Below are positions 1,794 to 33,011 of a stretch of DNA of 64,000 nt, piece by piece. The notes below the pieces were generated by a model. It had not been told where the DNA came from. It saw only the letters and a list, made by a program, of their open reading frames with translations, and made no database searches. Source of the stretch: a virus; IMG/VR virus record IMGVR_UViG_3300021960_000043, positions 1 through 64,000 of that record, one strand, 5' to 3'. A program made the translations under genes and the position numbers. Within the stretch, counting starts at the first letter, position 1, and the number at the start of each line of letters is the position of its first letter.

Positions 1794-2108
1794 ATGAGTG
1801 TCGCCTTTACTGAAGCGTGGGCTGTTTTGAAGATGGGTATGCCATCTATGCCTTCACCGCCGTCAGATATGGGTGAAAAAAGCCCAAATGGTGGCGGAGA
1901 TGAAGAATACAGCCACAAAGATTTGGATGCTGAAGCACTCATTGATTTCTTAGTGCAGACCTTAGGAATGGAATATCAGGATGCAAAAGTCTTGGTTACA
2001 CACCACAAAACTAAAGAAATGGCTAGTGCAAGTAAAAGAAAGGCAAAAATGGCAGCCGAAAATATGGCTGATGAAGCACCAGCACCACCACAAATGGGGG
2101 GATATTAA
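1794..2108 (+). CDS. Small protein with N-terminal AFxxAWxxLK tag
   Basis: Start re-assigned from 1545 to the ATG at 1794 (MSVAFTEAWAVLKMG); TTGATAA lies about 25 nt upstream. Confidence 0.75.
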   Translation: MSVAFTEAWAVLKMGMPSMPSPPSDMGEKSPNGGGDEEYSHKDLDAEALIDFLVQTLGMEYQDAKVLVTHHKTKEMASASKRKAKMAAENMADEAPAPPQMGGY

Positions 2109-2470
2109 TGACAGCATTTGAAACAGCATGGAATATATTAAAAAGCAATACACTAGAAAAACAATCGTATCATCCAGCGATACACGGTTTAATGAACAGA
2201 AAAAGAATTGCTGATGGTTTTAATGTTGATATGGAATCTCCATATTACCAACCTAGTGATTTTGTAGATGAAGCGGAAGGTATGGGTTATGAGCCGAAAG
2301 GTGCTAGTGGGCCTAATTCACTTAGAGCCGCAGAACAATCAGGTGAATTAAAAAGACAATCTACGGGTTTTAGACAAGGACAATACCCACAATATACCCC
2401 TGAATTATACAACGCATTAATGAGTTTACAACAACCTAATGACCCTTCTAAAGCAATACCGCGTGATTAA
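2108..2470 (+). CDS. Small protein with N-terminal AFxxAWxxLK tag
   Basis: Begins MTAFETAWNILKS; TAATG coupling to the upstream gene. Confidence 0.8.
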   Translation: MTAFETAWNILKSNTLEKQSYHPAIHGLMNRKRIADGFNVDMESPYYQPSDFVDEAEGMGYEPKGASGPNSLRAAEQSGELKRQSTGFRQGQYPQYTPELYNALMSLQQPNDPSKAIPRD

Positions 2471-2471
2471 A

Positions 2472-2936
2472 ATGACAGCATTCGATAAAGCATGGGATTT
2501 TCTCAAAGCAGATGAGTCATACACAGGGCAACCAAAGTTTGGTGGAAACCAAAAACAACCCCTTGATATGCACGAATATCCTCCCGGCTCAGGTAATTTT
2601 ATGTCTTTACAAGACATGTTAATGGCTAGAAACGCAGATGCTCGCAAAAATATGCAAAGAATGGATAATAACATGCGTGGGAGAAGAGGGCCAAATGTTG
2701 GTGGACAACCTTCTACAAATGCTATAGCGAGTAGATTACCCATAACCCCTAATCCACACACAGAAGTAGGAAGGAGAATAATAGAAAATTACCCACCAAT
2801 TCCAAATACAATCACGGTGGATGGAAAAGAGATGGACAGAAAAAAGTTTTTTAATCAAAATAGAAACAACATTATGGTGAGTCCAACGGGTAATTTAAGC
2901 GATATTCCTGAAGAGCAAAGATGGAATCCTTTGTAA
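2472..2936 (+). CDS. Small protein with N-terminal AFxxAWxxLK tag
   Basis: Start re-assigned to 2472 (MTAFDKAWDFLKA), directly after the previous stop. Confidence 0.8.
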   Translation: MTAFDKAWDFLKADESYTGQPKFGGNQKQPLDMHEYPPGSGNFMSLQDMLMARNADARKNMQRMDNNMRGRRGPNVGGQPSTNAIASRLPITPNPHTEVGRRIIENYPPIPNTITVDGKEMDRKKFFNQNRNNIMVSPTGNLSDIPEEQRWNPL

Positions 2937-2990
2937 AAACACGATTTAGGAATGTTTATTTATAAACCCCCTCTCGTATTTAACCCGTAA

Positions 2991-3173
2991 ATGACTATGG
3001 CAACACCATTTGAAAGGGCTTGGTTACTAATCAAAGGACAACCTCTCGGTATACCTTTTACCGAACAAGAAAACATTTTTATCAACAAAACTCTATACGA
3101 AGCCATGAGTAGTTCTGATGAATTAAAAAAGAGAGAAGCCAAAGAATTATGGCATCATTTTTTGAGTTATTGA
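2991..3173 (+). CDS. Small protein with N-terminal PFxxAWxxIK tag
   Basis: MATPFERAWLLIKG; TTTATAAA about 25 nt upstream. Confidence 0.6.
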   Translation: MTMATPFERAWLLIKGQPLGIPFTEQENIFINKTLYEAMSSSDELKKREAKELWHHFLSY

Positions 3174-3490
3174 CCGAAACCAGCGGTTGTACTTTGTTGA
3201 CTTGAGGCTTTATCTGCCGTTCTTCTACGCATTTCTTCGTCAGATTGGCGATTTCTTTCAGCAGATGCATTCAAACTAGACATCGCTGCATCCATTGGGT
3301 CAAAGTCTGCTACCTTTTGAGCAGCAACCACACCGACCTTTTTTGCGCCTTTTTTACCAAGTTCTTTTGCACCTTGCGTAAGTGCTGCTCGACCTGCTGC
3401 TGTGCCGACAGCAGTAGCAGTTGAAGCAGCGGCACTACTAGCCAAACTACCTAATGCCCCAAGTGCTGCTCCTATAAATGGTATCGGCAT
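3167..3490 (-). CDS. Ala/Gly-rich small protein with hydrophobic N-terminus
   Basis: 107 aa, MPIPFIGAALGALGSLAS...; no competing + strand ORF over most of its length. Confidence 0.6.
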   Translation of the reverse strand: MPIPFIGAALGALGSLASSAAASTATAVGTAAGRAALTQGAKELGKKGAKKVGVVAAQKVADFDPMDAAMSSLNASAERNRQSDEEMRRRTADKASSQQSTTAGFGQ

Positions 3491-3544
3491 ATGATATTCG
3501 GAGATAGCGTAACATCAAAAACGTGTTGCTTCTTCCGCTAAAGC

Positions 3545-3754
3545 GTGAATGAAGATTTCGTTTTAGTATTCAAGGCAAAATCTTACATTCAAGATAGACC
3601 AAAAAGACTTGCTCAGGCTAAAGTTCAGCGTTTATCCCGTAAAACTAAGAATCGTAAAACTAAGAAAAGATATGCTCGTAACCTTTCTAGAGGAAATATC
3701 AGACCAAAGATGCGTAGACAAACAGGCTTAGTAAGGGTGGTGAGGCAAAGATGA
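3545..3754 (+). CDS. Highly basic small protein
   Basis: 69 aa, Arg/Lys-rich; ATGA overlap with the next gene. Confidence 0.6.
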   Translation: MNEDFVLVFKAKSYIQDRPKRLAQAKVQRLSRKTKNRKTKKRYARNLSRGNIRPKMRRQTGLVRVVRQR

Positions 3755-4530
3755 AAATACAACCTCACGAATATGGCCCTGTAACAGAATATCATGGAAC
3801 TATAGATTTACCAAAAGTTCTTTCTGAAGGGATTAGAGGTGGAAACCCGAAAACTCGCTCAAATCGCTATATACCTGAAGGTATGAGAGAAGAAGAATTG
3901 ATTTCTTATACTCACCCAAATAGAGAAATGGCTTTAGCCTACGCACAAGACAGGGCAAATAGAATGAAACTTGACCCGAAAAAAGTTGGCGTTGTTGGTG
4001 TTAGAGGTACTCAATTACCTGAAGCAGTTGAACACCAAGAGCCAAAAGAGGGCATTTTTGCAGGTACAAGTAGTTTAGTTAGACCGGGTAGTATATCTCC
4101 TGAATATCTAATTCAAGCATCTGAGGATAAGATGAAACCAAAGAAAAAGAAAGGTGTTGTTTTGATAATTTCAGTTGGCCCGAAAATGCCACGTAAACCA
4201 ACAGATGAGGCCACACCTAATAAAGAAGTCAAAAAATCATTTAGTAAACCAATGGACATAGCCTATCAACTATTGAAAAGAAATCTATCACCAGCAGCAC
4301 GAAAACATAAGTTGGAATATGACACAAAATATCAGTCTAGCCCGGAACGGGTCAAGTACAGAGTAGGTTTGAACCGTGAGCGTAGACGCAGGGGGATTTA
4401 CGGTTCAGGCAACGGGAAAGATGTCAGTCATACCGAGGGTGGGAAACTCACTTTGGAAAATGAGCATGATAATCGGGCTAGGCACTTTAAGAATCGGGGT
4501 ACACTTCGTAAGGTCAAGGTGAAAAAATGA
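3751..4530 (+). CDS. Multi-module protein: ADP-ribosyltransferase-like fold, linker, and HNH-like C-terminal module
   Basis: N-terminal YHGT..VLSEGI..SYT..A.AYA..V.V..I.PEYL pattern; internal tag PMDIAYQLLKR; C-terminal GNGKDVSH...NRAR. Confidence 0.55.
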   Translation: MKIQPHEYGPVTEYHGTIDLPKVLSEGIRGGNPKTRSNRYIPEGMREEELISYTHPNREMALAYAQDRANRMKLDPKKVGVVGVRGTQLPEAVEHQEPKEGIFAGTSSLVRPGSISPEYLIQASEDKMKPKKKKGVVLIISVGPKMPRKPTDEATPNKEVKKSFSKPMDIAYQLLKRNLSPAARKHKLEYDTKYQSSPERVKYRVGLNRERRRRGIYGSGNGKDVSHTEGGKLTLENEHDNRARHFKNRGTLRKVKVKK

Positions 4531-4700
4531 ACAGTTGTGATTGCGGTCATTGTGTTGGTATGGACACAGTTTGGAAAAAATTATGCCCTGCTGGAAAAGC
4601 AGCCGCTAAGAAAAAGTTCGATGTTTACCCATCTGCGTATGCAAACGGTTGGGCTGTACAATATTGTCGTGGTAAGTTTAAGGGGAAGAAGAAGAAATGA
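4527..4700 (+). CDS. 57-aa basic Cys-containing protein (not in ORF track)
   Basis: MNSCDCGHCVGMDTVWKKLCPAGKAAAKKKFDVYPSAYANGWAVQYCRGKFKGKKKK; ATGA overlaps at both ends; the YPSAYAN motif recurs in small basic proteins of marine viruses. Confidence 0.8.
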   Translation: MNSCDCGHCVGMDTVWKKLCPAGKAAAKKKFDVYPSAYANGWAVQYCRGKFKGKKKK

Positions 4701-4858
4701 AACTCAAAAAAGACAAATGTTGTTGTGGTGGTACTAAGAAAACACCTTGCGTTTGTATGATTGAGGGTAATCAATGTTCAACATCTTCTCCTAAATGTCC
4801 TTGTTATGCTTTGATAGACAAACAAAAGAACATTAAAAAAATGGTAGGAGTAGTATGA
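4697..4858 (+). CDS. 53-aa Cys-rich, metallothionein-like protein (not in ORF track)
   Basis: MKLKKDKCCCGGTKKTPCVCMIEGNQCSTSSPKCPCYALIDKQKNIKKMVGVV; 8 Cys; ATGA overlaps at both ends. Confidence 0.7.
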   Translation: MKLKKDKCCCGGTKKTPCVCMIEGNQCSTSSPKCPCYALIDKQKNIKKMVGVV

Positions 4859-5439
4859 CACGATGTACTTGTCATGATGTGCTCATTGTAAAGAACTTAA
4901 ACCGCTGGTTTAAGGAAAAATGGGTAGATGTGTCACGTACTAAAGATGGCAAGCACCCACCATGTGGTAGAAGCAAGGGAAAACTTTCAGGTAAAGGTTA
5001 TCCTAAATGTAGACCTTCAATCAAAGTTTCAAGTAAAACGCCTAAAACATCAGGTTCTATGTCATCGGGTGAGAAGCAAGCGGCGACAAAAAGAAAACGT
5101 GCAAAAAAGCAAGGTGTGGGTGGGAAACCAACAATTGTTAAGACAGACTACACTATGCGAAGCGACATGGATGCTTTTACCGCAGCGTGGGATATACTCA
5201 AAGCATCAACAGAAAGAAAGAAATTAAGTCTGAACAGAAGGCCAAACACCGGGCCAATTTCTTTTACTAACGAAAGACAGAAAACCCGTGAACAAAGAAT
5301 GATACAAGACATGATTAATGAAACAGGAAATAAACAACCACTCGATGTGATGAATCAAAAGGGTAGAGAACAAACCCCAAAAGAAGAAGAGTACCATTAT
5401 CAACAAATGTTACAAGATTATCAAGATGAAGGGTATTAG
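4855..5439 (+). CDS. Basic viral module (RWFKEKWVD...CGR...YPKCRP; DUF5872-like) fused to a second tagged module
   Basis: Recognisable motif in the N-terminal half; internal MDAFTAAWDILKAS at 5167. Confidence 0.75.
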   Translation: MTRCTCHDVLIVKNLNRWFKEKWVDVSRTKDGKHPPCGRSKGKLSGKGYPKCRPSIKVSSKTPKTSGSMSSGEKQAATKRKRAKKQGVGGKPTIVKTDYTMRSDMDAFTAAWDILKASTERKKLSLNRRPNTGPISFTNERQKTREQRMIQDMINETGNKQPLDVMNQKGREQTPKEEEYHYQQMLQDYQDEGY

Positions 5440-5441
5440 AA

Positions 5442-5939
5442 ATGAATGATTTTAACATATGTGATTGTTGCACACCTATGCAACAAGCATCAGCGGCTTT
5501 GTTAGATTCTGTTTTTGAAAAAGCCTCAAAATATGATTTCCCATGTCCTCATTGTGGGAGTGAAAACCCAATGGTTGCTTACACTCCTGATTATACAGGG
5601 TATCATGGAAGTTGTGCAAACTGTCATCAAGAAATTACTTCACCAGCAGGTAGCACTAGATATGTCGCTAAAGGTGAAAAGCCATTTCATGGCTACAACC
5701 CAAACAGACATAGTAGAAGTGGTGGACTAAATGCAAAAGGACGTGCAAAGTTTAAGCGAGAAACAGGTGCAAACTTGAAAAGACCTGTTACAAAGAAGCC
5801 AAGTTCACTAAAACCCGGCAGTAAAGCAGCAAAAAGAAGAAAGTCATTTTGTGCTAGAATGGGTGGAAGTAAAGGTCCAACTAGTAAAGATGGGAAATTA
5901 ACACCAAAGGGTGCTGCTCTAAAACGCTGGAATTGTTAA
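5442..5939 (+). CDS. Zn-ribbon plus basic viral module (GGLNAKGR...RRKSFCARM...WNC; DUF6321-like)
   Basis: CPHC/CANC Zn ribbon between FEKA and VAKG; conserved basic C-terminal motif. Confidence 0.75.
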   Translation: MNDFNICDCCTPMQQASAALLDSVFEKASKYDFPCPHCGSENPMVAYTPDYTGYHGSCANCHQEITSPAGSTRYVAKGEKPFHGYNPNRHSRSGGLNAKGRAKFKRETGANLKRPVTKKPSSLKPGSKAAKRRKSFCARMGGSKGPTSKDGKLTPKGAALKRWNC

Positions 5940-5995
5940 ATATGATTACCAACGCTTTTCTTTCTATTATGCCGAATTGGTTAAAGGCTTTGATA

Positions 5996-6080
5996 GCATT
6001 ATTTTAATTATTCAATATTACTTATATATATAATAATAATATATTTATATGTTATATAATAACAATGAAATAATGAAAAC
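5996..6080. other. Extremely AT-rich intergenic element
   Basis: About 85 nt of almost pure A/T; shares TACTTATAT and ATAATAA/AATGAA with positions 1-55. Confidence 0.6.
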
Positions 6081-6135: not shown

Positions 6136-6768
6136 ATGGATTGGAATGCCGATGGAGAAATAGATAACTCAGAATTAAGATTAACAGGACTGATTTTAGC
6201 ACAATCAGCACTCATTGGAGTGGCAGTAGGGGTTTTTGACTCCGGCGTTTGGTTGCCATCGGGTGAAAGCCAAGACTCATGGGTCAACGGTATGACCTAT
6301 TCTATGGCAGCCTTAGCAGTTCAAATTGTGGCATTTTACTTATTCAAAATGTTCTTTGAGCAATCAATGAGACAAAGAGTTAGTATGCAAAATCGTCAGA
6401 AAGAATATGAAATGAGGATTCGTGGTATGCAAGGCGACCATGAACAAAGAAGAATGGAACTTCAGTTAAGGGTACAAGAAATGCAACTAGAAAGAGATTT
6501 AGCCGCATTTAAGCAAAATCCGACAGGATATTTTCAACAACCCACTTCACCTCCTGAATTACAACAACATAGCACTCCTTCAGGTGCTATGAGTTTAGGG
6601 TTAGATGCTTTAGCACATCAACCTCAATCTGTAGTACCACCTAGAAACTTAGATGAAATATATCAATTAGCAGATTCACTTCAAAATATGCCAACACCAC
6701 CTGCTGATGGAAAACCAACAACGAGGTTGAAAAAGGATGGTACACCTGACCTCAGATACAAGAGTTGA
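6136..6768 (+). CDS. Two-TM membrane protein with coiled coil and C-terminal KKDGTPDLRY motif
   Basis: Two hydrophobic segments followed by a heptad-rich region; GAGGT RBS. Confidence 0.8.
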   Translation: MDWNADGEIDNSELRLTGLILAQSALIGVAVGVFDSGVWLPSGESQDSWVNGMTYSMAALAVQIVAFYLFKMFFEQSMRQRVSMQNRQKEYEMRIRGMQGDHEQRRMELQLRVQEMQLERDLAAFKQNPTGYFQQPTSPPELQQHSTPSGAMSLGLDALAHQPQSVVPPRNLDEIYQLADSLQNMPTPPADGKPTTRLKKDGTPDLRYKS

Positions 6769-6773
6769 ATTAG

Positions 6774-7031
6774 ATGGGTAAAATATTCAAAACACCAAAA
6801 GATGATTCTGTGGAAGAAACACTTAGAGCCATGCATTTAGCAAATACATTTGATAACACATACGAATGGACAGTTGGTTGGGTTAGAACAATTATTGTAG
6901 CAGGTGTAACTGCTTTAGCGGTTAGTGCTGCTGAATCTTATACAGAGTTCACATTGTGGGGTTGGACTGTTGAATGGTTTTTAGAAAAAGTCGCTAATTT
7001 CGCACAATGGCTATCTGATTTAGTGAGTTGA
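6774..7031 (+). CDS. Small membrane protein
   Basis: Hydrophobic WVRTIIVAGVTALAVSAA and a Trp-rich amphipathic C-terminus. Confidence 0.75.
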   Translation: MGKIFKTPKDDSVEETLRAMHLANTFDNTYEWTVGWVRTIIVAGVTALAVSAAESYTEFTLWGWTVEWFLEKVANFAQWLSDLVS

Positions 7032-7035
7032 ATAA

Positions 7036-7749
7036 ATGTCAATGACAGGTAGCGTATTGGTGGGGGCTGCCCTTTTTGGACAAAATCTATACAATTCTTG
7101 GCGACCTAGAAAAATAGGAGTTTATGGGACTAGCATGGTGGGTAAAACCACTCTTGATAGATATATGACAACACCGGGTGAAATGGAAGAAATACCTGAA
7201 GAAGAAAGAACCTCTCATGCTAAAATATTAGGTAAGTTTCTTTTACCAAAACCTACTAGAAAAAGAGTAAAATGGCAAGGTGAAAGAAGATTAGTTCATT
7301 CTGCTGATATGGGAGGACAACAAAGATTTTGGAATCTTTGGATGGATGATGCCGTAGCAAGACAGGTCGAAGCAATTGTTTACATGTTTGATGATAGAGC
7401 ATTCAAAGGTGGTGGTGAAGGAATGGAACAAGTTGCTGGATTTACATTCTTAGTAGATAATATAATTAAAAGACAGTATCGTTATAGAAACGTAAAGGCT
7501 TGGTGGAAAGGTAGAAAATATTCTCCTAAAGTAATTATGTTAGTCGCTAATAAAGCGGATAGATATTTCGATGATACTGCTGCTAGGTTATGGCCTCAAG
7601 GAAGAATTGGTGAACATAAAATATTTGACCCTTTTAGAGATGATTTAATTCGTTTACAAAAAGCAGGTGTACCAACTAAAAGGTCTTTCATGGCTACTAG
7701 AATAGGTTGGAATGTTGAGCCAACATTGATAGAACTTTTAACTTCGTAG
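7036..7749 (+). CDS. Small Ras-superfamily GTPase, Arf/Sar1-like
   Basis: G1 GTSMVGKTT, G3 DMGGQ followed by RFWNLW, AIVYMFD, G4 VANKAD, G5-like MATRIG; hydrophobic/amphipathic N-terminal extension. Confidence 0.85.
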   Translation: MSMTGSVLVGAALFGQNLYNSWRPRKIGVYGTSMVGKTTLDRYMTTPGEMEEIPEEERTSHAKILGKFLLPKPTRKRVKWQGERRLVHSADMGGQQRFWNLWMDDAVARQVEAIVYMFDDRAFKGGGEGMEQVAGFTFLVDNIIKRQYRYRNVKAWWKGRKYSPKVIMLVANKADRYFDDTAARLWPQGRIGEHKIFDPFRDDLIRLQKAGVPTKRSFMATRIGWNVEPTLIELLTS

Positions 7750-7757
7750 GTGGAAAA

Positions 7758-7934
7758 ATGAGTAGGAATAAAACAACATTAGTAGGCACAGGTGGTGGCT
7801 CTAAGAGTTTGAGAACTACAGTACCTTCTTGGATAGTTGAACAATTTGGTTTAAAATCAGGCAAAAAATTGTTTTGGAGACTAGAAACTAGTGAAAATGG
7901 GGAATTGTATATCAAGGTGAAGCCTGAGGGATAA
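7758..7934 (+). CDS. AbrB/MazE/SpoVT-family swapped-hairpin DNA-binding protein (58 aa, not in ORF track)
   Basis: MSRNKTTLVGTGGGSKSLRTTVPSWIVEQFGLKSGKKLFWRLETSENGELYIKVKPEG; AGGTGG RBS. Confidence 0.8.
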   Translation: MSRNKTTLVGTGGGSKSLRTTVPSWIVEQFGLKSGKKLFWRLETSENGELYIKVKPEG

Positions 7935-7936
7935 AC

Positions 7937-8938
7937 ATGGTTTTAGATGTACCCGATAATATGTATCGTGCTGTAACAGGCACAAGAATACAACCAAATC
8001 AATCTTTAGCAGCCATAAATGAAGCCGCTATGGTGGCTTTGTCACAACAAGGAAATAATAACTTAAATTATGCTGCTTTAATGGAACAGGCTGTAGCACA
8101 ACAACAGATGCAAGCGTTAGCCCAAACTAAAAATCTTGAAGTGCCAAAAGTTAATTTTTACCCTAGCACACATCCTGATGGTAGAAAAGCAAGGAAACAA
8201 GACATAAAACAAGCCTATCGTTTACTTACGCCAGCAAAAAGATTTATGTTAAGCCCTGCTAGATTGTTTGGTAGAAAATATATTTACAATAAACAAACAA
8301 ATCTTTGTGTTGTTGATGGTTGTGATTGTGCTGAGTTAATAAAAAGTGATAATTTATATCAAAGAATTACTGATGATGAAACAGGTAGAAGTCTTTGGGA
8401 GATGTATTGGAACAATCCAATTACAGGGGAAGTTGAGGCTTTTTTAGCACAAGATAGAGTTACTAGTGGTAGAAGAATGAAAGGAACATACTGTCCTGAA
8501 CATTTACATCTTTATCATTTGTTATGTAAATGGGAATCAGAACAAGAAAGAGAAGATGAATTAAAACCATCTAGGTTTAGAGATAAAATGAAAAAAGGTG
8601 TTAGTTTAGTAACAGTTCCTGTTACAGCCTTAACAAACACATCACAACCCACTCATAGTTTAGTTGAAAAATATCAAGTCTTTTTTGAAGAAATACAAAA
8701 AGATTCTAACAAATCAAAAGGCATAAATATTTGGCATATACCAAATCCTGAAAGTGGAAACAATGATATTACTATGATACAGTTTGATATGAGAATGTTT
8801 CAAAAAGAAATACTTGAAGCCTCATTACCCACACCCGCTTTTTCTAACATGTTAAATCAAGCCAATATACCTAATATAAACCAACAGCCTCAAACCATGA
8901 CACCTGTTCCCCTTAATCAAGAGGTGGCACAACAATGA
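7937..8938 (+). CDS. Hypothetical protein with putative Zn-binding site
   Basis: CVVDGCDC ... CPEHLH; Gln-rich termini. Confidence 0.75.
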   Translation: MVLDVPDNMYRAVTGTRIQPNQSLAAINEAAMVALSQQGNNNLNYAALMEQAVAQQQMQALAQTKNLEVPKVNFYPSTHPDGRKARKQDIKQAYRLLTPAKRFMLSPARLFGRKYIYNKQTNLCVVDGCDCAELIKSDNLYQRITDDETGRSLWEMYWNNPITGEVEAFLAQDRVTSGRRMKGTYCPEHLHLYHLLCKWESEQEREDELKPSRFRDKMKKGVSLVTVPVTALTNTSQPTHSLVEKYQVFFEEIQKDSNKSKGINIWHIPNPESGNNDITMIQFDMRMFQKEILEASLPTPAFSNMLNQANIPNINQQPQTMTPVPLNQEVAQQ

Positions 8939-9552
8939 CATTAGGAATAGGTACAAACCAAACTCAAAATAACGGCTTTACAGGTTTGGGATTAGGTGCT
9001 GCAACACCATCAACTAATCCTTTTGGTGCTCAACAAAGTCAACAAATGAATCCCCTTATGGGCGGAATGTTGCAAGGTGCTGGTTTTAATCCCGCCCACG
9101 CTCAAGCACCTATAGCCCCTCCCTCAGATACACAGATACTTGCAGCGATGATGAATACAATACAACCTATTGATAGATTTTTCATTGGACAAAGTATGCC
9201 TATATTTGTAGAAATGATTTCTAATATTACAGCGTTTTCTTTGTTGAATGTGTTAAAAAACTCATCTTTCAAAATAGACGATGATGGGAATATGAAAATG
9301 GATGTATCTTCTTTACCTAGTGATTTACAAACTCTTTCTGCTGAAAACATAATAGCACAATTGAACACTTTACAAAATATTTCACAACAAGCGGTTACAT
9401 CTGCTTTACAAGAAAGAGATAGAATAATTGCTATCTCTGAACAAAGTCTATTACAATCTGCACTCACAGGTGCTTTAACAGACCAAACTTTCCTAGAAAA
9501 TGCGGGCAACGCTATGGGTACAACAGCCCGAAGTTTCTTTGGACTAAGGTGA
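8935..9552 (+). CDS. Hypothetical helical protein with Gly/Gln-rich N-terminus
   Basis: 205 aa; GAGGTGG RBS; ATGA overlap. Confidence 0.75.
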   Translation: MTLGIGTNQTQNNGFTGLGLGAATPSTNPFGAQQSQQMNPLMGGMLQGAGFNPAHAQAPIAPPSDTQILAAMMNTIQPIDRFFIGQSMPIFVEMISNITAFSLLNVLKNSSFKIDDDGNMKMDVSSLPSDLQTLSAENIIAQLNTLQNISQQAVTSALQERDRIIAISEQSLLQSALTGALTDQTFLENAGNAMGTTARSFFGLR

Positions 9553-9806
9553 TTAAAATGAAAATAACCCCGACAGAGTATATACCAAAAGAGTTTGCAG
9601 AAGTTTCTATGCACTTTTTCTCTCCAAAGAGAAGTGTGATTATAGATATGGTAATGGTACAATTAATTAGTGCTATGATTGTTGGATTACTAATTCTTTT
9701 ATTCAAAGGTGGGGAATTAAATGCATCTGAAACATCCATGTACATGATTGGGATTTTTGTATCTTTTATTCTTTTGACTACGGTTTATGCTAGAATAACT
9801 AGATAG
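9549..9806 (+). CDS. Small two-TM membrane protein (holin-like topology)
   Basis: Two hydrophobic helices in 85 aa; last gene of the operon. Confidence 0.7.
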   Translation: MIKMKITPTEYIPKEFAEVSMHFFSPKRSVIIDMVMVQLISAMIVGLLILLFKGGELNASETSMYMIGIFVSFILLTTVYARITR

Positions 9807-10516: not shown

Positions 10517-10920
10517 TTTCTATAGGAGATTTAATGCAAATAACACACCCCGGTCATAGACATTATAATTCTGATAATTCATTACACGATAGTGATTTAC
10601 CTTTATTTTTAGATTATTGTGTTAATGTTATAGAGAAGTTCAATTATCATCATTTTAATTCTTATAACAATAAATTAGAAAATGTAGATTGTATAATAAG
10701 AATAGTAGATTTAACTACACGATTACAACAAAGTGATGAACCAAAAGAAGTTTTTGATATTCGTGCTGAATTGAGAAAAGAATTATCTAATTTTGAATAT
10801 CTTTGTGATACGATGGCTAGGTGTTTTGTAAGTCCTAATTTTGTCATAGAGTTCTATCATAGGCTTTCTAATAAACTCAACAATGAAATAAAAGTATATG
10901 CGGGGTTAGACTATGACTGA
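10513..10920 (+). CDS. Hypothetical protein
   Basis: 135 aa, TTG start with GAGG RBS, overlapping both neighbours. Confidence 0.65.
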   Translation: MISIGDLMQITHPGHRHYNSDNSLHDSDLPLFLDYCVNVIEKFNYHHFNSYNNKLENVDCIIRIVDLTTRLQQSDEPKEVFDIRAELRKELSNFEYLCDTMARCFVSPNFVIEFYHRLSNKLNNEIKVYAGLDYD

Positions 10921-21755: not shown

Positions 21756-21910
21756 ATGTGAAAGTTGGTATTGTGAAAGGGGTTTCAACCACCGAACATT
21801 GTCAACTATGCGGAGGTAATACATCCACAGGATGTTTAGCACCTGAAAATCAGGGTGGGAGTTTGCTGTCCTGTTCTATTAGGCAGAACCCCGCAATTGG
21901 AGGGAGGTGA
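21752..21910 (+). CDS. 52-aa Zn-finger-like protein (not in ORF track)
   Basis: MNVKVGIVKGVSTTEHCQLCGGNTSTGCLAPENQGGSLLSCSIRQNPAIGGR; overlaps both neighbours by 4 nt. Confidence 0.6.
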   Translation: MNVKVGIVKGVSTTEHCQLCGGNTSTGCLAPENQGGSLLSCSIRQNPAIGGR

Positions 21911-24900: not shown

Positions 24901-27321
24901 TTAGGTGTAGAAAATGGAATCATGTTAAGAAATCTAAGAGAGAAAAAATCAGACTTAAACGCTATACATGACATAGCAAGAGAACACATCATACCGGGTA
25001 TGAAAAAAGCAAACCCCGATGCTTTTCCTTTGGATAACCCATCTCAATTTTTAATTGATTCAGCACAAGCGTTACACGATGCTGAGTTATTTGCTTTACA
25101 CTCGGATGGTTCAATACATGGGAAAAATAGTTTAGGTTTGACCCATAATGAAATAGAGACTGATAGTATACAAACTAAATTGGGCCAATCACCACATCGT
25201 GATATGGCTCAAAGTGTTAGAGATAACGGCATAAATCTAGATTTAGAAAGAGAAGATAAAGATGAATATATTAATGAACTTTTTGAAGAACTAAGTATAC
25301 CTCCTTCAAATTACAATAAAAAAATAATAGAAGGAGTGTTACAATCAGGTAAAACACATCTTACTACTATGGGTAATTTATTAGCACAAGAAGAGCATGT
25401 TCCTAACCACGTTAAAGACCACAAAAGTATGATTGAACATTATGAAGAACAACTTAACCAATCTACATACGGTGAGGGTAGAAAAAACCTAGCATTAGAT
25501 AAAAGCCATCTTTTGAATCGTATGCCAGCAAGAAAACATTTGTTGTTAAGTCAAGCAACAAAAGATGAATTAGAACATTGGGGTTTGGATTATCACCAAT
25601 TACCAAGAAATATTTACGGTAATGAATCAAAAGGAACTAGTGTGAAAGATTCAGGTATACCTAGTAAAACTAAAAGATTCATGGATAGTTTAGTTAGTTA
25701 TGATGAGGGTGCATCTCCTGATATAGAAAATACCGAAGATGTAGGTAGAGTAACAAGAGATGAAGTAACTCATGGCTCAGATAAAATTAATTCTGTGCGT
25801 TCTAATGATGGTATAAACCCCTATCTATATTATTCTAGTAGTGCTCAAAAATTACACAATGGAAAAGTAATGTTTCCTCCAAGCACTAGTATGAATATAG
25901 ATAGAGATGGAAATGCACAATGGGGAAATAACACACAGCAGAGTTATATGATACCCGCTTCGGAAGAAGGTTTAGTTGCCATGCATGGAGAAAACACCAT
26001 ATCACAAATACAAGGTTTAGCAAATCAGCAGGGTTTAGACACTATGTATGTTAGTCCTACTAGTAATTTAGATAGAATTAGTCCTGAAAATCCTATAGGT
26101 GAAGCAGTCAACTATGAGACTATAGCCACTAGTTTTGATAAGATAACCAATAGTAGTCTATTGAAAAACTTACCAAAAGAAATGCCATTACTTGACCCTT
26201 ATCACAAAGTTTTCGATTATGAGAATGTGGAAGAGTTGAAAGGATTTACAGGAGATTGGGTTGTTGCTGCTATGGAAGTAGGTCAAAGAGTCAAAGTTAC
26301 TCGTAAGGGTACATTCATAGAAGTCAAGTCTAACGATGGGGATAAAATAGGTTTATCTGATTCTATGCGCACATCTATTAGAAAATTAGGAAGTAAAAAC
26401 TTCATTATGGATGGGGTTCTTAATGATAAAGGAATTACTATGATGGATTTGATGTATTATGATGACACCGATGTAACAGACATGGATGTAAGAGAAAGGA
26501 TGAAATTATTAAGAAGTCAATTTGATAGCCATGAAAATATTTTCATCCCTAGTCCTTCTACTCTAAGAATGACAGACGAAGATGGTTTAGAAGAAGCAAT
26601 AAAATATTTGAGAAGTGAAAATAAAGATTGTAAAATACTTATTAGAGATGCTAAATCAACTTATATGAAAGGGGAAGAAAAACATCCTAAGTGGATTTTA
26701 CTTACTAAATCTGATGATGACTTTCACATACCCTTTACTATGGAGTTAGAAGAAAATGTATTTATTATCAATTATGAACATGATATAGTTAAGTTTGATA
26801 TTGTTGATGAAGAACCTATCAACCCACGGGCCATATTAGGAGAGTTAAACAATAGCGACTATACATTAACTTTAACTAAAAGTTTAGAAAAGTATTGGCG
26901 ACCTGCATTTTACGAAATGGTGAAAGAAGAAAAAGATGAAGATGATACTGAAGATGATGAAGATGATGAAGTTATTTCAGACCGTAGAGCAGAAGTTATG
27001 GAACAAGAAAGTGCTGGAATATTAAAACCTAAGAAAGACCCTAATCTCTTACTCAAACCAAACATGATGAAAAATATTATAGAAATTATTGAAAGAAGCA
27101 TGGATGCTTTAGAAAAAGGGCATTTCCCAATGTCGGGTGGAAAAGGCTTAGGTATTGATGTTGGTAGTGATATAGAAAGTCCTAGAGGGCCGACTAAACT
27201 TACCAATGAGGCTTCTTTACCTGATTGGGATATGAAAGAAAGACCACAACAAGACCCTGAGAAACCTGAAAAGTACCCTAATAGGGAAAAGAAAGCATTG
27301 GAAACAAAAAGAACAGATTGA
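21907..27321 (+). CDS. 1804-aa head-module protein with C-terminal ATP-dependent DNA ligase-like domain (degenerate)
   Basis: At about 26170-26710: WVVAAMEVGQRV, FIMDGVL, MMDLMYYD, RERMKLL, ILIRDAKSTYMKG..HPKWILL follow ligase motifs I, III, IIIa, IV and V. Confidence 0.75.
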   Translation: MNDLDSDQNIHLQARDNLLKSFIFAQEDIDHELNDYVLSVINLFNKGIYEENYIDRFFIDKSLLILKDEDVKRQILDLDRFKELEESLPLDGREQERRKKRESFKPTYEYMLSGRKTGHRDRLDFENEKTVQRPAKMYPAKHRWAGKHVVSDDMISRWPKSVTDSSSYRDNPFSNILHPLLKINSKHGYPEFVEKLKNYYLSSEDDTPLSQLHGEIEMRHNNYHKKNGDMVLDNKYLGDLSEHSEGHGALEHTLYERAYQKWIEDNRVSVDEMIKNGSTDKDVRNKHFEEAANKWTSDDYQEVEGSNLQDNRLYADIQKLINSGGFKESENARDYLLEYKNKGKYGEGEIEHYDKQKYPLGVLENHSHKLGWLGYNLGLEWLEPKDRSKVIEHLLEHRSDGKESHQSHVTLSDGVKLPMARLKRNAAKRAMPEMLWAIGSHDRALPNTKAHRENKEEIGDFDTDKRVHFFNTGMKETMVKTGKGDEQISLNESLLKNINDKLHKNMYDQEDFLENPAAEQGIKDANSLRFLPITDYEMQGVKENYQKGLRNAFKNQMFTDKMGQRLPLAEMKRVDAKILHAALKTFNRNVKNRRQTFHATSSIEDLKKHYAVEEGKHPIHELLGNSLDGSLIDAEHIESLEKRLEQGFSVGDTQKNVSNHLQPFTRIKGPTEESVDSDTATHFHKTKHGLEGLQNFWAHGFQRGGLSTSPETYMDFLHEMTINPEEPNQSLFGVKNEKSGIIDLHSNIAGLFGLINSETLPPYQKFAHTPKQVLSIHDSSQPKMKKRIRMDMPRNLKNHNISEHSRTPGVSHKIKNSEIGKLSHLGIGMADNGLHSNINPTARVGSTLGYTFDTTISSNSSGILRDSILRGIGHNPGDKDIATGRTKLGSPVSMYGLEDLFTEGKVPLPNIGDKSDFLQFMTDKNTFARSESEQMKTLNLDMEQIIEELNYSVLQEENNMGGLSEVEKEHLTDRYQELENQKLEIIRQMNNIDDSDTALGVENGIMLRNLREKKSDLNAIHDIAREHIIPGMKKANPDAFPLDNPSQFLIDSAQALHDAELFALHSDGSIHGKNSLGLTHNEIETDSIQTKLGQSPHRDMAQSVRDNGINLDLEREDKDEYINELFEELSIPPSNYNKKIIEGVLQSGKTHLTTMGNLLAQEEHVPNHVKDHKSMIEHYEEQLNQSTYGEGRKNLALDKSHLLNRMPARKHLLLSQATKDELEHWGLDYHQLPRNIYGNESKGTSVKDSGIPSKTKRFMDSLVSYDEGASPDIENTEDVGRVTRDEVTHGSDKINSVRSNDGINPYLYYSSSAQKLHNGKVMFPPSTSMNIDRDGNAQWGNNTQQSYMIPASEEGLVAMHGENTISQIQGLANQQGLDTMYVSPTSNLDRISPENPIGEAVNYETIATSFDKITNSSLLKNLPKEMPLLDPYHKVFDYENVEELKGFTGDWVVAAMEVGQRVKVTRKGTFIEVKSNDGDKIGLSDSMRTSIRKLGSKNFIMDGVLNDKGITMMDLMYYDDTDVTDMDVRERMKLLRSQFDSHENIFIPSPSTLRMTDEDGLEEAIKYLRSENKDCKILIRDAKSTYMKGEEKHPKWILLTKSDDDFHIPFTMELEENVFIINYEHDIVKFDIVDEEPINPRAILGELNNSDYTLTLTKSLEKYWRPAFYEMVKEEKDEDDTEDDEDDEVISDRRAEVMEQESAGILKPKKDPNLLLKPNMMKNIIEIIERSMDALEKGHFPMSGGKGLGIDVGSDIESPRGPTKLTNEASLPDWDMKERPQQDPEKPEKYPNREKKALETKRTD

Positions 27322-27364: not shown

Positions 27365-28753
27365 GTGTTATCCACAGCAAGCCTTTATGGTGATGATACA
27401 ATCACCTTGCTCAAAGCAGGGAATGATTTGGTAGTGGCAGGGTACGCAAGCGTAGAATTAGTAGATAAACAGGGGGATTTAATAACAAAAAACGCTTTGA
27501 AAGACGGATTCAAAAAGTTCATGACCGACCCAAAATACAGAAACGTACAATTAGCACACTCAAATATACAAGTCGGAGAAGTTATTCCAAATTACACAGA
27601 TAGCGAAGGGAGGGTATGGAAAAGCGAAGTTGATGATGTCGGAATGTTTGTAGTAATACAGTTACGTGATGACATCGAGAAAGCAAAAGAAGTTGCTGCT
27701 GAAATCAGAAAAGGAAAACTAAGAGGTTTTAGCATCGGTGGACAGGCATTCAAAAGAGTAAGAAAAAGTGACCCAAAACACGGCGACTACCAAGAAATCA
27801 GCAAACTAGAATTACACGAAATAACAATCTGTGAAAAAGGAATAAACCCTGAAGCAACATTTAGAATATTAAAACAAGATAAAACAAAGGAAGGAAATAA
27901 AATGACCGAAGAAAACGAAGATATGACGAAGCAATTGGGAGATGTTCTCTCTCGTCTAGAAGGCAGACTTGACGCTATGGAAAAAGGCTCTATGCCACCA
28001 GCACTCAAAGAAGCAATCGCAGACAAGAAAGAATCTTCTGAAAAGAAAGACGACAAAGAAAAGGCATCTGCTGATAAGAAAGATGAAGATAAAGACGATA
28101 AAGAAAAGTCTGAGTTTTCTGACGTTATCACATCAGATTACTTAGATTGGATGGAAAACACCCTAAAAAGCGGCGGTGTAGACATTGATGGTGCAAGAGC
28201 ACACTTCGATGACCTCAACAAAGCAAACTTAGGTTCAGACCTAAAAGACGATGGTGCGGAAAGATTCGCAGCACAAGTCAAAGGTCGAGTGCAAGAAAAT
28301 GGCGCACCTTCCACTAATGCTATTTCCCGTACAACAGGAAGTGGCGGAAAGAAAGATGTTAAGAAATCTGATTTCCTAACACCCGATTCAGTGAGTGATG
28401 CAGATGTAGAAGCAGCATATGAAGTCTACAAAGCAGCGGCTATGGAACAAGAGTTCCGTGGTTCTCTAGAATCAAGTTTTGCAAACCGATTTGCTAATGA
28501 AAGGCAAGAAGAAATTGCAAAAGCACAAGCACAACAATTTGATGCTCGCGGCCCACTTGATGAAGTAATGAAGGCTCTAAACTCTCTTAATGAGAGAATT
28601 GACGGTATGACTTCAGCAGACGGTACAACAACCATCGCTAAGAGTGCAAACACAACACCACAAGTAACTATTCCATCAACTCAGGACATGCACAAAATGT
28701 CATGGGATGAGGTTCATGCCTTAGCAGATAGGGCTTTTGATAGGGGAGAGTGA
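27365..28753 (+). CDS. Prohead maturation protease (HK97/herpes assemblin-like) fused to scaffold
   Basis: VAGYAS..VDKQGD, AH..QVG, LRGFSIGG, LHEITIC..G.NPEA; coiled-coil C-terminal half; likely GTG start at 27365 with TTCATATA 25 nt upstream. Confidence 0.9.
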   Translation: MLSTASLYGDDTITLLKAGNDLVVAGYASVELVDKQGDLITKNALKDGFKKFMTDPKYRNVQLAHSNIQVGEVIPNYTDSEGRVWKSEVDDVGMFVVIQLRDDIEKAKEVAAEIRKGKLRGFSIGGQAFKRVRKSDPKHGDYQEISKLELHEITICEKGINPEATFRILKQDKTKEGNKMTEENEDMTKQLGDVLSRLEGRLDAMEKGSMPPALKEAIADKKESSEKKDDKEKASADKKDEDKDDKEKSEFSDVITSDYLDWMENTLKSGGVDIDGARAHFDDLNKANLGSDLKDDGAERFAAQVKGRVQENGAPSTNAISRTTGSGGKKDVKKSDFLTPDSVSDADVEAAYEVYKAAAMEQEFRGSLESSFANRFANERQEEIAKAQAQQFDARGPLDEVMKALNSLNERIDGMTSADGTTTIAKSANTTPQVTIPSTQDMHKMSWDEVHALADRAFDRGE

Positions 28754-28758
28754 ATTAA

Positions 28759-29931
28759 ATGGCAAGAGATTATGTACGCACAATAACAGATATGGAAAGA
28801 TACTACTATGGGGCAGGTAACTCAATGGGTTACTCCTACACAGGTAGTGAATTACTCAAGGCTGATAGCCCTATGCTATCAACTACCGCTGGTACTTACC
28901 AAGCAATCTACGGTAGAAAAGTATGGTCGCAACTGAACCAAGAGTTCAATGCGTTCTCTATACTACCTAAGAAACCGTGGGATAGAAGCGGATGGCGTGT
29001 TATTACTGCAAAGCCTAACGGCGGTGCTCTACATGGTGGAGTTGCAGAAAACGCAACATTACCTGAGACTGTAAAACCTACATTCCAACACATCGGTGCA
29101 AAACCTAAGACAATTGCTCATACATTCGATATGTCTGAAACAGCAATTTTCCTAGCAGACCGTGATGATGGTCTTGGAGACATCAGAGCAGTTCTGAAAG
29201 AAGAAATGGGTAAACACCACGCTGAAATGGTAAATAAAATGCTATTAGGCGATGTTGACACACCAGCAGCAAACAACTTCGAGTCATTAGACCGTATTAC
29301 TGCTGCTGACGCAGGTACAACAGGATTAACAGGATTGAAAACATCAAGCAGTGATGCACACGTTAGTGCTGCTGCTGACTTAGACATCTATTCAATTGAT
29401 AGAAGTGCTAACTCATGGAGTCACGCTGAAATGGATTGTGCTGCTGATACAGCAGATGCAAGCCGCAGAACTTTCAGCCTAGACCACTTAGATACGCTAT
29501 TCCAGCGTATTTGGGAACGTGGAGGAAACCCTAAGGTTATTCTAACAGGTTACGACACTCTAATGAGATTACAACAACTTCTACAATCACAACAGAGATT
29601 CATGGAAGAGAAGAGAGTTACCCCTACCTACAACGGTGTAAAGGGTGTACCCGGAATCGAAGCAGGTTTCATCGTAGCAACATACAACGGTGTACCAATC
29701 ATACCAACAAAGGATATGCCTGATGATGGTGGAATCAGCCGTCTATACTTCTTAGACACTGATTACATGTATTTCAGTACAGCAATACCGACTCAATACT
29801 TTGAGTCCGGTATCGAAACAGGCGACCCATTCGCAATTAACAGACTAGGACAGGAAGGACTTTACCGAACTATGGGTGAAGTATGGACTACTTTCTTTGG
29901 GGCGCAAGGCTCAGTGAGGGATTTAGTCTGA
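28759..29931 (+). CDS. Major capsid protein (HK97 fold)
   Basis: 390 aa directly after the protease; biased codon usage; YNGVPII and LYFLDT motifs. Confidence 0.9.
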   Translation: MARDYVRTITDMERYYYGAGNSMGYSYTGSELLKADSPMLSTTAGTYQAIYGRKVWSQLNQEFNAFSILPKKPWDRSGWRVITAKPNGGALHGGVAENATLPETVKPTFQHIGAKPKTIAHTFDMSETAIFLADRDDGLGDIRAVLKEEMGKHHAEMVNKMLLGDVDTPAANNFESLDRITAADAGTTGLTGLKTSSSDAHVSAAADLDIYSIDRSANSWSHAEMDCAADTADASRRTFSLDHLDTLFQRIWERGGNPKVILTGYDTLMRLQQLLQSQQRFMEEKRVTPTYNGVKGVPGIEAGFIVATYNGVPIIPTKDMPDDGGISRLYFLDTDYMYFSTAIPTQYFESGIETGDPFAINRLGQEGLYRTMGEVWTTFFGAQGSVRDLV

Positions 29932-29968
29932 GATTCGTGGAGAATTGAAGATACAGGAGGAATAAGAT

Positions 29969-30373: not shown

Positions 30374-30384
30374 GGTGGTTTTGA

Positions 30385-30789: not shown

Positions 30790-30796
30790 AAATAAA

Positions 30797-31078
30797 ATGG
30801 CATTTACAAGTACACAAGATACAAGACCGCATTACATAGGCGACCTTATGATGGTAACAGGAACTTTCACTAATGGCGGAGGCGATACAGGTGGAAACAT
30901 TGACCTCTCTTCTATGCTTGCAACAATAGTGGGGGCTGGCGCAAATGCTGGCTCTTCTACTGCTGGCACAGGGGCGGGGGTTGACGGTGTTTTTACATTG
31001 ATTAACGGTTCAACATTAGTATTACAAACTGTAGCCGGACAAGACGGTACATGGTACGCATTTGGTCGCCGCAGTTAA
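30797..31078 (+). CDS. Small Gly/Thr-rich virion protein
   Basis: 93 aa, beta-rich, in the head operon. Confidence 0.65.
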   Translation: MAFTSTQDTRPHYIGDLMMVTGTFTNGGGDTGGNIDLSSMLATIVGAGANAGSSTAGTGAGVDGVFTLINGSTLVLQTVAGQDGTWYAFGRRS

Positions 31079-31091
31079 GGCGGTGAAATAA

Positions 31092-31286
31092 ATGGTTAAA
31101 GCAATACAAGTTATTGGCCCATATAGCCCTAAGGAGTTTTCCGGGGCAGGTAATGACGGTGCTCTAAGCACTAGTATGACAACGGACATAGAAGCATTAA
31201 CAGGATATGTTAGTGCTAACATAATCTCCGTTGAACCTATAACAGTATTGGGTAATATATTTTTAGTGGTATATCAGAAAGAATGA
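31092..31286 (+). CDS. Small hypothetical virion protein
   Basis: 64 aa; GGTGA RBS. Confidence 0.6.
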   Translation: MVKAIQVIGPYSPKEFSGAGNDGALSTSMTTDIEALTGYVSANIISVEPITVLGNIFLVVYQKE

Positions 31287-31302
31287 ATGGGTGGGATAAT
31301 GA

Positions 31303-31587
31303 ATGAGTTTTGGCTTAAAGCACTTAGATGTTGAAGATATAGAAAGACTTCAAAAACAAGGTGTGAGAGCAGAAGAGCATTACCATCCTAACATAGTTAC
31401 TGATGAAAAAAATCCTTTGAAGGGTGTTATCACTAAACAAAGAGCCAACGCTCAAAAAGCATCTGATGTACTAAATATCAAATCCGGTACTAGATGTACT
31501 CATTGTGGTATGCTTCATTTCATGTGGAGGGAAAATTGTGCTACTTGTAAGAAACCAATGAATTATAACTTAGGGGTGAAAGAATGA
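31303..31587 (+). CDS. Zn-ribbon protein
   Basis: CTHC...CATC. Confidence 0.7.
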   Translation: MSFGLKHLDVEDIERLQKQGVRAEEHYHPNIVTDEKNPLKGVITKQRANAQKASDVLNIKSGTRCTHCGMLHFMWRENCATCKKPMNYNLGVKE

Positions 31588-33011
31588 GTGATTTTTTTGA
31601 AGTTTTGAAAGCAAGACGTAAAAGAAAAGATTACTTATCTAGAAAGTACAAAAAAACATATGTCCACCATCCCGAAACAGGATTCAAAGGCACTGCGGGT
31701 CAATTTGCTAACAGACTAATGAATCAAAGGTTTGCAGAATTAGGTATAAATCCTAAAGATTTAACTAAAGAACAAAGAGAAAATTATCGAAAAAAGATAG
31801 AAAATGATATTCTAAATATACCTGATATGACCGACCACACGTTCAATGATTTTGGTCTAAAACAAATTGATAAACCTTCTAAAGAAGAAGAACCAATCAA
31901 GTATGTTTCACATGCTGATGGCTTCAAAGGTACTATAGGTCAAAGAGCCTTTAGAATGATTCAAGATGGTATCAAAGGGGGTATGGACATCCCTGAACAT
32001 CAAAAAGAAGCATTAAGACAAAACTTAGTCTTAGACATGCAACAAAACCCTGAAAAGCATGGGCTTACTGAGATAGTTGGGGCGAAGCGGTCTGACTTTA
32101 GGAAGCCAAAATCCAAAAAAACACCCCAAGCCGCTTCTACCCCACCAAAAATTGCACCAATTTTGCCAAAAGAACCTCAACAGTCTACTCCTGATGGTTT
32201 GAATATGCAAAAAGTTATGCAAGCGATGAAATTATTACAGGATAATAATTTACCTGTAACCGCGGAAAGCATAGAGGCTCTCTTACCACATCTACCTGAA
32301 CAAGACAGTTCACCTGTACAAAGTAGGTCAAATCAAAGTGGTAATCCATATCCTACGGGCTTGACTCCTGAGGGTAAGTTCCAACCACAAAGATTGGGCC
32401 TTTCTTTTAGAGGTGATGAAGTAGAAACACCAGCACAAAAAGAAAAGATGTTGGAATACTTTAGAAATAATCCTGATAAAAGAGTTCAACATAGAAGAGA
32501 AGGAGATGAGTCAGAACAATTTTTGGCTTCATTAATGAACAACATGAGTGCTGAAAGCGATGCAAAAACTGATTTTACTCAATACTTCCCTTCTAGATAT
32601 GATGAAGAAGGTTTAGTAGGTGCTGACACTAGAAGTGCAACTGATGATATGGATAGACCTGAGATACCTGATTATTTAGACCCTGTGAAAAATAAAAAGC
32701 GAATAGAAAATATAGAACGTCAACAAAAAATATTCGATGCTAAAAGTGGTATGACTGAAGAACAATTGAACCAACAAAGAGTTAAGACGATGGCAGCACT
32801 TCAGGGTAAAAAAGTTGCTGATGATGCGGCTAGAGAAAAAGCGATGGCAGATGAAACTAAACCAGCCGAGCAAATGACAATGGCTGATTGGGAGAACCGA
32901 TTAAAAATAAGTGCTGCGAATCCTACAGGCGCACCTCCACCAACATTGAATAGCAATTTTGATAATAATATGTTTGATGAAAACGGAAACTTGAAAGAAG
33001 AATACCAATGA
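31584..33011 (+). CDS. Protein with N-terminal FFEVLKA tag and a duplicated GFKGTxGQ domain
   Basis: YVHHPETGFKGTAGQFANR and YVSHADGFKGTIGQRAFR repeats. Confidence 0.7.
   Translation: MSDFFEVLKARRKRKDYLSRKYKKTYVHHPETGFKGTAGQFANRLMNQRFAELGINPKDLTKEQRENYRKKIENDILNIPDMTDHTFNDFGLKQIDKPSKEEEPIKYVSHADGFKGTIGQRAFRMIQDGIKGGMDIPEHQKEALRQNLVLDMQQNPEKHGLTEIVGAKRSDFRKPKSKKTPQAASTPPKIAPILPKEPQQSTPDGLNMQKVMQAMKLLQDNNLPVTAESIEALLPHLPEQDSSPVQSRSNQSGNPYPTGLTPEGKFQPQRLGLSFRGDEVETPAQKEKMLEYFRNNPDKRVQHRREGDESEQFLASLMNNMSAESDAKTDFTQYFPSRYDEEGLVGADTRSATDDMDRPEIPDYLDPVKNKKRIENIERQQKIFDAKSGMTEEQLNQQRVKTMAALQGKKVADDAAREKAMADETKPAEQMTMADWENRLKISAANPTGAPPPTLNSNFDNNMFDENGNLKEEYQ

Follow-up and report, generated by a model that had tools for sequence, protein, structure and literature searches.

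The stretch analyzed here (hereafter the window) comprises the first 64 kb (64,000 nucleotides) of a single 95,231-bp magrovirus record (IMGVR_UViG_3300021960_000043), and from position 1794 onward it carries otherwise unrelated open reading frames (ORFs) that share one short peptide, here called the tag, which is the subject of this report. A Pfam scan of the window ORFs identified a large terminase (TerL), a portal protein, a Peptidase_S78 (S78) prohead protease-scaffold fusion, and a major capsid protein (MCP) of the HK97/SU10 type. Beyond the window, a minus-strand block at 67-95 kb constitutes the replication module, with a family B DNA polymerase (PolB) and a Cpn60-type chaperonin; a Cpn60/thermosome homologue is encoded in all six genomes that we compared. 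The nearest cultured MCPs are those of the haloarchaeal siphoviruses HVTV-1, HCTV-1, and HCTV-5 (∼31% identity), more than 599 close MCP relatives are present in IMG/VR, and PDB sequence searches with the MCP and with the protease returned no usable relatives. Magroviruses (Magrovirales) are tailed viruses of marine group II archaea (Poseidoniales) that have genomes of ∼90-100 kb, their own PolB and chaperonin, and an HK97-type MCP (PMC5434244). Because the genome size, the MCP relatives (∼30% identity), and the combination of PolB and chaperonin all match this published description, the window virus is a magrovirus, a member of a group abundant in the surface ocean.

Four closely spaced plus-strand ORFs open with the tag: a 104-aa ORF at 1794-2108 (MSVAFTEAWAVLK, 1794-1832; 13.9 bits, profile match at 1797), a 120-aa ORF at 2108-2470 (MTAFETAWNILK, 2108-2143; 23.5 bits), a 154-aa ORF at 2472-2936 (MTAFDKAWDFLK, 2472-2507; 23.9 bits), and a 60-aa ORF at 2991-3173 (MTMATPFERAWLLIK, 2991-3035; 16.0 bits, profile match at 3000). 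A fifth copy, also on the plus strand, is internal (MDAFTAAWDILK, 5167-5202; 17.1 bits) and opens the second module behind a DUF5872 domain in ORF 4855-5439, and a sixth lies outside the window at 84918 (plus strand; 17.3 bits) in a kinase-fold gene at 84915-85748. These scores, which range from 13.9 to 23.9 bits for the six strong copies, refer to a 14-residue profile that was built from IMG/VR copies, iterated to 357 variants, and applied with a cut-off of 7 bits; its consensus reads M-[TSN]-[AP]-[FM]-[DEN]-x-A-W-x-[LVIF]-L-K. The genome as a whole contains six matches to the strict pattern F..AW..[LI]K, all in plus-strand coding frames (1806, 2117, 2481, 3009, 5176, and 84927). When the profile was run against six near-complete related genomes, there were 36 matches at or above 7 bits as compared to none in the reversed sequence. 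An initial sequence-only reading of this DNA had proposed that unrelated ORFs start with a common motif, and this holds: every peptide that it quoted sits where it was placed, the profile null is empty, and the tag is a real, shared peptide. The same reading gave the tag's ending as LK[A/S/G], which was too narrow. The Lys at the end of the tag is ∼97% invariant. The next residue is A, S, or G in just ∼43% of tags, M in 16% (A/S/G/M together, ∼59%), and commonly E, Q, K, or D as well.

Across IMG/VR, 376 distinct tags were found, and their positions are predominantly N-terminal (328, or 87%), with 40 internal (11%) and 8 C-terminal (2%; defined as no more than 10 residues from the C-terminus). 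A degenerate DNA pattern for the tag matched at least 119 IMG/VR stretches; among the matches listed, 86% lie at ORF starts and are followed by mutually unrelated sequences, and 100 of the 119 loci listed have further genes in common with the six magrovirus genomes, the remainder being very short or evident chance matches. Applied to 596 Gb of cellular genomes, the same degenerate pattern yielded at least 120 matches where ∼139 would be expected by chance, and the extra features of the tag were found in combination in none of the cellular matches listed versus 66% of the viral matches listed. The tag is essentially confined to one virus lineage, the magroviruses, and the expectation that the motif would not be equally frequent in host proteins was borne out. 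A host sorting signal or host-type leader was likewise rejected because the cellular matches listed occur at chance level. At conserved tag positions, synonymous codons vary freely and the upstream DNA is unconserved, which argues that selection acts on the peptide; for the same reasons a DNA or RNA element and gene conversion were rejected as its source. We also rejected an archaeal class III (prepilin-type) signal peptide, because the residues following the Lys are polar or charged, are mutually unrelated, and include no hydrophobic stretch. A term search of two magrovirus papers (PMC5434244, PMC11706807) found no description of the tag, nor was one found in the capsid-targeting literature searched.

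What follows the tag is highly diverse. BLAST clustering sorted the 344 sequences downstream of it into 149 clusters, including 90 singletons, and an alignment of 110 cluster representatives is conserved only at F4, A7, W8, and K12. Pfam recognized almost none of these 110 cargo representatives; one NUDIX protein is found among the tagged cargo. The tag is thus, as had been suggested from the window, portable on hypervariable and unrelated cargo, and it may be placed N-terminally, internally, or C-terminally. The kinase-fold cargo outside the window (84915-85748; L350:915-1748) has a protein-kinase-like model with a predicted local distance difference test (pLDDT) score of 87 and Rio2, AceK, and APH as its top matches; of its 28 homologues, which range down to 35% identity, 27 retain the tag. 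Residues 3-12 of that model, which correspond to the tag, form a helix with a pLDDT of only ∼56 as compared to ∼87 for the body of the protein, so the tag is not packed against the kinase fold.

A second cargo protein (3751-4530, plus strand) consists of three modules. Its first domain (3751-4245; EYHGT...GIRGG) was not recognized by Pfam. Its AlphaFold2 (AF2) model (pLDDT 77) has best PDB matches that all belong to the ADP-ribosyltransferase (ART) clan (KptA/Tpt1, pertussis toxin S1, RES, and Arr), with the KptA/Tpt1 2′-phosphotransferases at the top. Homologues of this ART-fold domain are N-terminally tagged, doubly tagged, or untagged (as in the window) and are followed by varied downstream modules; the tag is modular, with both gains and losses on a single kind of cargo. 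Behind the domain lies a degenerate internal tag, KPMDIAYQLLK (4246-4278), at which orthologues read SEPMDIAWRLLK and similar, i.e., the canonical tag, and then a C-terminal “SPxAxRxHKxEYD” module, which one relative (L123) encodes as a separate gene that opens with a canonical tag. Two more degenerate internal tags (11315-11347 and 11990-12028) are located in a 670-aa basic, low-complexity, polyprotein-like ORF (10913-12925, plus strand), where orthologues carry a sub-type one residue longer (EPM..AWS.L[LM]K). All three sites fall below the profile cut-off in this genome, and we regard them as real, degenerate tags because their orthologues carry the canonical or the one-residue-longer form. 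A further site in the 670-aa ORF (VAVSNLLK, 12647-12670) has a conserved [IL]LK[AG] and was rejected as a tag, its orthologues keeping just [IL][LQ]K[AG]. The internal motifs first pointed out in this region are therefore of unequal standing: that at 5167 is strong, those at 4252, ∼11312, and ∼11987 are degenerate and backed by orthologues, and that at ∼12641 is not a tag. A copy had also been noted at 31584, where a 475-aa head-region protein (31584-33011) starts with MSDFFEVLK/A (31584-31610, plus strand; here and below a slash marks the junction after Lys). The profile misses this peptide, although a 35%-identical orthologue in L005 reads MNNYWDFLKA, and we treat it as an uncertain half-tag at best.

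Internal copies usually read [GS]-E-P-M-[DN]-[LI]-A-W-x-L-L-K and are repeated in 900-aa ORFs of relatives; one genome (G002) has three in one such ORF and two in another. No conserved cleavage site was found before internal tags, the residues ahead of the tag being unconserved. The fusion of DUF5872 (4855-5166) with a tag-led second module is found again at five other loci (L102, L108, L110, L129, and L190). Small, very basic modules occupy 4527-5939, namely, this DUF5872 and a zinc ribbon with DUF6321 (5442-5939), and they are shuffled between genes in relatives; in three aligned database homologues, DUF6321 is fused behind the ART-fold domain.

Tags are co-oriented with late genes. The strand that bears the structural genes holds 33 of 36 tags versus ∼61-75% of the coding capacity (binomial P ∼8e-4), and in six of six genomes the tags lie in a syntenic cluster a few kb upstream of TerL. 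None of the minus-strand genes of the PolB/chaperonin replication block was tagged. The block contains a single tagged gene, 84915-85748, which lies on the plus strand and is the only sizeable plus-strand gene there. The sequence-only reading would have been undermined had the motif been equally frequent in replication proteins; judged by sequence alone this is not so, as tags avoid the replication module and sit with the late genes.

Junctions that end in Lys also occur in proteins of the head. The S78 protease-scaffold fusion (PF04586, E = 7.7e-9; ORF to 28753) has a leader of ∼17 aa that ends TLLK/A (27365-27415, plus strand). Among 45 distinct protease orthologues, conservation is 0.2-0.5 before this [LIV]-L-K junction, rises at P5, P3, and P2, and reaches ∼0.9 directly after the Lys. 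In the MCP (ORF to 29931), the first 34 residues end ELLK34/A35 (28759-28860, plus strand). The scaffold has an [ILV]-x-K/[SAG] site (TIAK/S, 28631-28645, plus strand) ∼30 aa before its C-terminus and upstream of a conserved MSW[DE]EVH tail, and this site is present in all ∼60 orthologues. These three junctions recur at homologous places in HVTV-1, as PVFK/S in the protease (after a 170-residue N-terminal extension), as GMSK/ADNLL in the MCP, and as EVQK/S in the scaffold. The leader of an 1804-aa head-module protein ends NLLK/S (21907-21966, plus strand), and “HL[RQ]ARD.LLK[SA]” is kept in its orthologues down to 24% identity. The 1804-aa protein itself (21907-27321), which is encoded directly upstream of the protease, has a sub-threshold match to ATP-dependent DNA ligase (residues 1512-1596, E = 8e-4), and its HVTV-1 counterpart is annotated “zeta toxin.” A mini-scaffold (20937-21272, plus strand) carries QILK/S (21159-21173) followed by HKMSWEEIH, arranged as in the scaffold tail. 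The scaffold (28631-28750) and the mini-scaffold (21159-21272) have a common layout of [IL]-x-K/S, spacer, and MSW[DE]E[IV]H, and this layout resembles the herpesvirus M-site, where a release site precedes a capsid-binding tail. In their placement, the MCP N-terminal junction, the protease-boundary junction, and the one that lies ∼30 residues short of the scaffold C-terminus resemble maturation sites of the HK97 and herpesvirus types, the positions here being read from conservation alone; in HK97 itself, gp5 is cut after Lys103. Phi-[LI]-K-[ASG] is found within the first 40 residues of 9 of 97 ORFs, which comprise four tags, four head-region genes (21907, 27344, 28759, and 31584), and one other. 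Its presence in 4 of ∼12 head genes corresponds to a Poisson P of ∼3e-4 for a comparison chosen post hoc.

In outline, the closest known system is the capsid targeting sequence (CTS) of bacteriophage T4. The internal proteins of T4 (IPI-III, Alt, and others) are otherwise unrelated and fast evolving and share a short conserved CTS leader (PMC3012670), which is removed by the gp21 prohead protease. Like the CTS, the magrovirus tag is a short leader on unrelated, fast-evolving accessory proteins of one virus lineage, and its ending may be the cutting consensus of the virus's own head protease. The parallel may extend to cargo, as Alt, one of the CTS-bearing internal proteins, is an ADP-ribosyltransferase, and an ART-fold enzyme is found among the magrovirus tag cargo. 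The two systems differ in that the tag is an F-x3-W-x2-L-K helix, in that it is not strictly N-terminal (40 internal and 8 C-terminal among 376), and in that the host is archaeal. The protease differs as well: gp21 cuts at L/I-x-E, and the magrovirus enzyme is a Peptidase_S78 (PF04586) of the HK97 type rather than a gp21 homologue.

We propose that the peptide M-[TS]-[AP]-[FM]-[DE]-x-A-W-x-[LIVF]-L-K serves as a portable address tag of magroviruses. It forms a three-turn amphipathic helix that carries Phe4, Trp8, and Leu11 on one face and a small residue, Ala, at both position 3 and position 7. A single receptor within the assembling procapsid would accommodate this helix in a hydrophobic groove. 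Tagged accessory proteins would be packed into the head and, by analogy with the T4 CTS, delivered with the DNA to the next host cell. The invariant Lys would be the P1 residue of a hydrophobic-x-Lys/small site cut by the S78 prohead protease-scaffold. A cut there would take N-terminal tags off their cargo and split tagged polyproteins into modules, with internal and C-terminal tags staying on the upstream module. The spacing F-x3-W-x2-L on one face is that of a known helix-in-groove motif, the F19-W23-L26 helix of p53 that is bound by MDM2; the resemblance is a structural analogy only and implies no common origin or partner.

The components of this proposal are not equally secure. We have high confidence that the helix serves for docking and that a single shared receptor recognizes it. 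That the receptor is a component of the procapsid, and that tagged proteins are packaged, we consider about evenly balanced. It is also probable, although somewhat less so than loading, that the prohead protease cuts at the Lys. Taken as a whole, procapsid docking, loading, cleavage at Lys, and delivery form the best explanation that we can offer, and its probability falls just short of one half. A broader version, in which the position-independent helix would be a universal capsid-loading code by which hundreds of enzymes and DNA-binding proteins (ART-like, kinase-like, NUDIX) are delivered as a swappable effector arsenal, with polyproteins cut by the head protease, is more tentative again.

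Several observations weigh against loading into the procapsid with cleavage at the Lys. The frequency of A, S, or G after the Lys is low for a hydrophobic-x-Lys/small site, and the eight C-terminal tags fit docking and not a cleaved leader because a cut after their Lys would free nothing useful. The sole connection between the tag and the maturation sites is a two- to three-residue ending. It had been suggested that the MCP and the protease carry the same ending as the tag and that the scaffold is studded with xxK[SAG]. LLK is indeed common to both proteins, but the full tag is absent from them: the tag profile scored all MCP and protease orthologues below 0 bits. The tag has no similarity to the scaffold tail either (hhalign probability 0.03%), and K[SAG] accounts for 11 of 29 scaffold Lys residues versus a background of 22%, a marginal enrichment (p = 0.04). 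The LLK[ASG] 4-mer occurs at background frequency over the window in all six frames, and we rejected it as a signal by itself. The link between the tag and head maturation is suggestive but thin. No tag was found in the structural half of HVTV-1, such that the virion proteome of a cultured relative offers no cross-check. The strand and synteny counts given above are not independent because the genomes are related. Finally, magroviruses are uncultured, and their tag system is known here only from sequence.

Among other explanations, the one that survives best is that the helix docks onto a hub outside the capsid, for folding, localization, or regulation in the infected cell. Candidates for such a hub would be the viral group II chaperonin, the Arf-like GTPase/membrane-protein operon at 6136-9806, or a host factor. 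The conservation of a Cpn60/thermosome homologue in all six genomes is consistent with this, as is the dissimilarity of the tag profile to any head protein. However, tags avoid the replication/early block and both cluster and co-orient with morphogenetic genes, and a polyprotein architecture with Lys-ended junctions would suit the head protease better. The tag does not appear to be a host sorting signal since no cellular proteins among the matches listed carry it. We consider docking to a non-capsid hub unlikely.

Alternatively, the tag might load cargo into the capsid and never be cut, acting purely as a helix that docks to the scaffold or to the interior surface of the HK97-fold shell, in which case the Lys would be a binding residue or helix cap. 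This would account for tags that are N-terminal, internal, or C-terminal and for the unrestricted residue after the Lys, and it would suit a recognized unit that is a 12-residue helix, as proteases usually read short extended segments. It is at odds with the near invariance of the Lys and the predominance of A/S/G/M behind it, with the use of Phi-L-K/small at conserved boundaries in the protease, MCP, and scaffold, and with the location of internal tags exactly at the module junctions of polyprotein-like ORFs. We thus view loading without cleavage as quite unlikely.

A converse explanation is that the tag is a processing signal only, a recognition element for cytoplasmic cutting of polyproteins with nothing being packaged. 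The “[GS]EPM[DN][LI]AW.LLK” repeats in the 900-aa ORFs of relatives and the invariant Lys would agree with such a role. In contrast, 87% of tags lie at the N-terminal extreme of single-module proteins, where a cut would free just a 12-mer, and C-terminal tags exist. Furthermore, the sole protease recognized among the Pfam-scanned ORFs is the prohead protease fused to scaffold, an enzyme that in related viruses with HK97-type assembly acts inside proheads. Processing without packaging is likewise quite unlikely in our estimation. We give almost no credence to the absence of any common function (chance resemblance, ordinary paralogy, DNA-level recombination, or a translation-initiation element): the tag is short, and an M after the Lys in 16% suggests spread by fusion onto pre-existing start codons, but profile matches number 36 as compared to 0 in the null, codons vary synonymously with no conserved upstream DNA, the cargo folds are unrelated, and the kinase family keeps the tag down to 35% identity.

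The proposed loading of a procapsid through an address helix has further partial precedents. For the giant phages SPN3US and phiKZ and for the phage P1 Dar system, many head-internal proteins are reported to be processed by the prohead protease, and large polyvalent proteins to be loaded via N-terminal regions (PMC7411985, PMC10052503, PMC12810830). The cargo loading and prohead-protease processing proposed for magroviruses would be of this kind. To our knowledge, no single 12-residue consensus is common to hundreds of cargo families in the giant-phage or P1 Dar systems. Encapsulin cargo-loading peptides are short, Gly/Ser/Leu-rich terminal peptides that bind the shell protein and, from either terminus, direct varied cargo into an HK97-fold shell. 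The consensus of the magrovirus tag is unrelated to theirs, and encapsulins operate without protease, DNA, or delivery. Unlike the ribosomal L27/Prp-type leader, a host-type leader that is cut by a host protease and reused by phage 80alpha, the tag is absent from cellular proteins beyond chance among the matches listed.

If the tag is a capsid-loading code, the magrovirus proteins that enter Poseidoniales cells can be listed from sequence alone; this repertoire would be large and mostly without assigned function in one of the ocean's most abundant virus-host pairs. Archaeal tailed viruses would then have evolved a T4-like internal-protein system independently, with another peptide and another protease family, and the tag could serve in the laboratory as a simple means of directing foreign proteins into the capsids of archaeal viruses. 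Should the receptor turn out to be different, the occurrence of one address peptide throughout the lineage, on ∼150 cargo families, would still indicate a hub that awaits identification.

Other features of the window were noted in passing. The first tagged gene is directly preceded by an intergenic region of the divergent kind (1327-1793), with a plausible minus-strand gene of 266 aa on its other side (526-1326). This region is dense in 14- to 23-nt direct and inverted repeats and may control transcription in the two directions. Between the terminase and portal genes, a 386-aa ORF (17537-18697) has a weak LAGLIDADG-like match (E = 0.0055, below cut-off) and may represent an insert of the homing-endonuclease type. 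Toward its 3′ end, the portal ORF (18679-20538) contains a perfect 12-bp tandem array of ACCGGGAATGCC (16.7 copies, 20136-20335), which would give a four-residue repeat in the C-terminal region of the portal. A hexanucleotide array of GAGCCT (13.5 copies, 37673-37753) lies within ORF 37409-38074.

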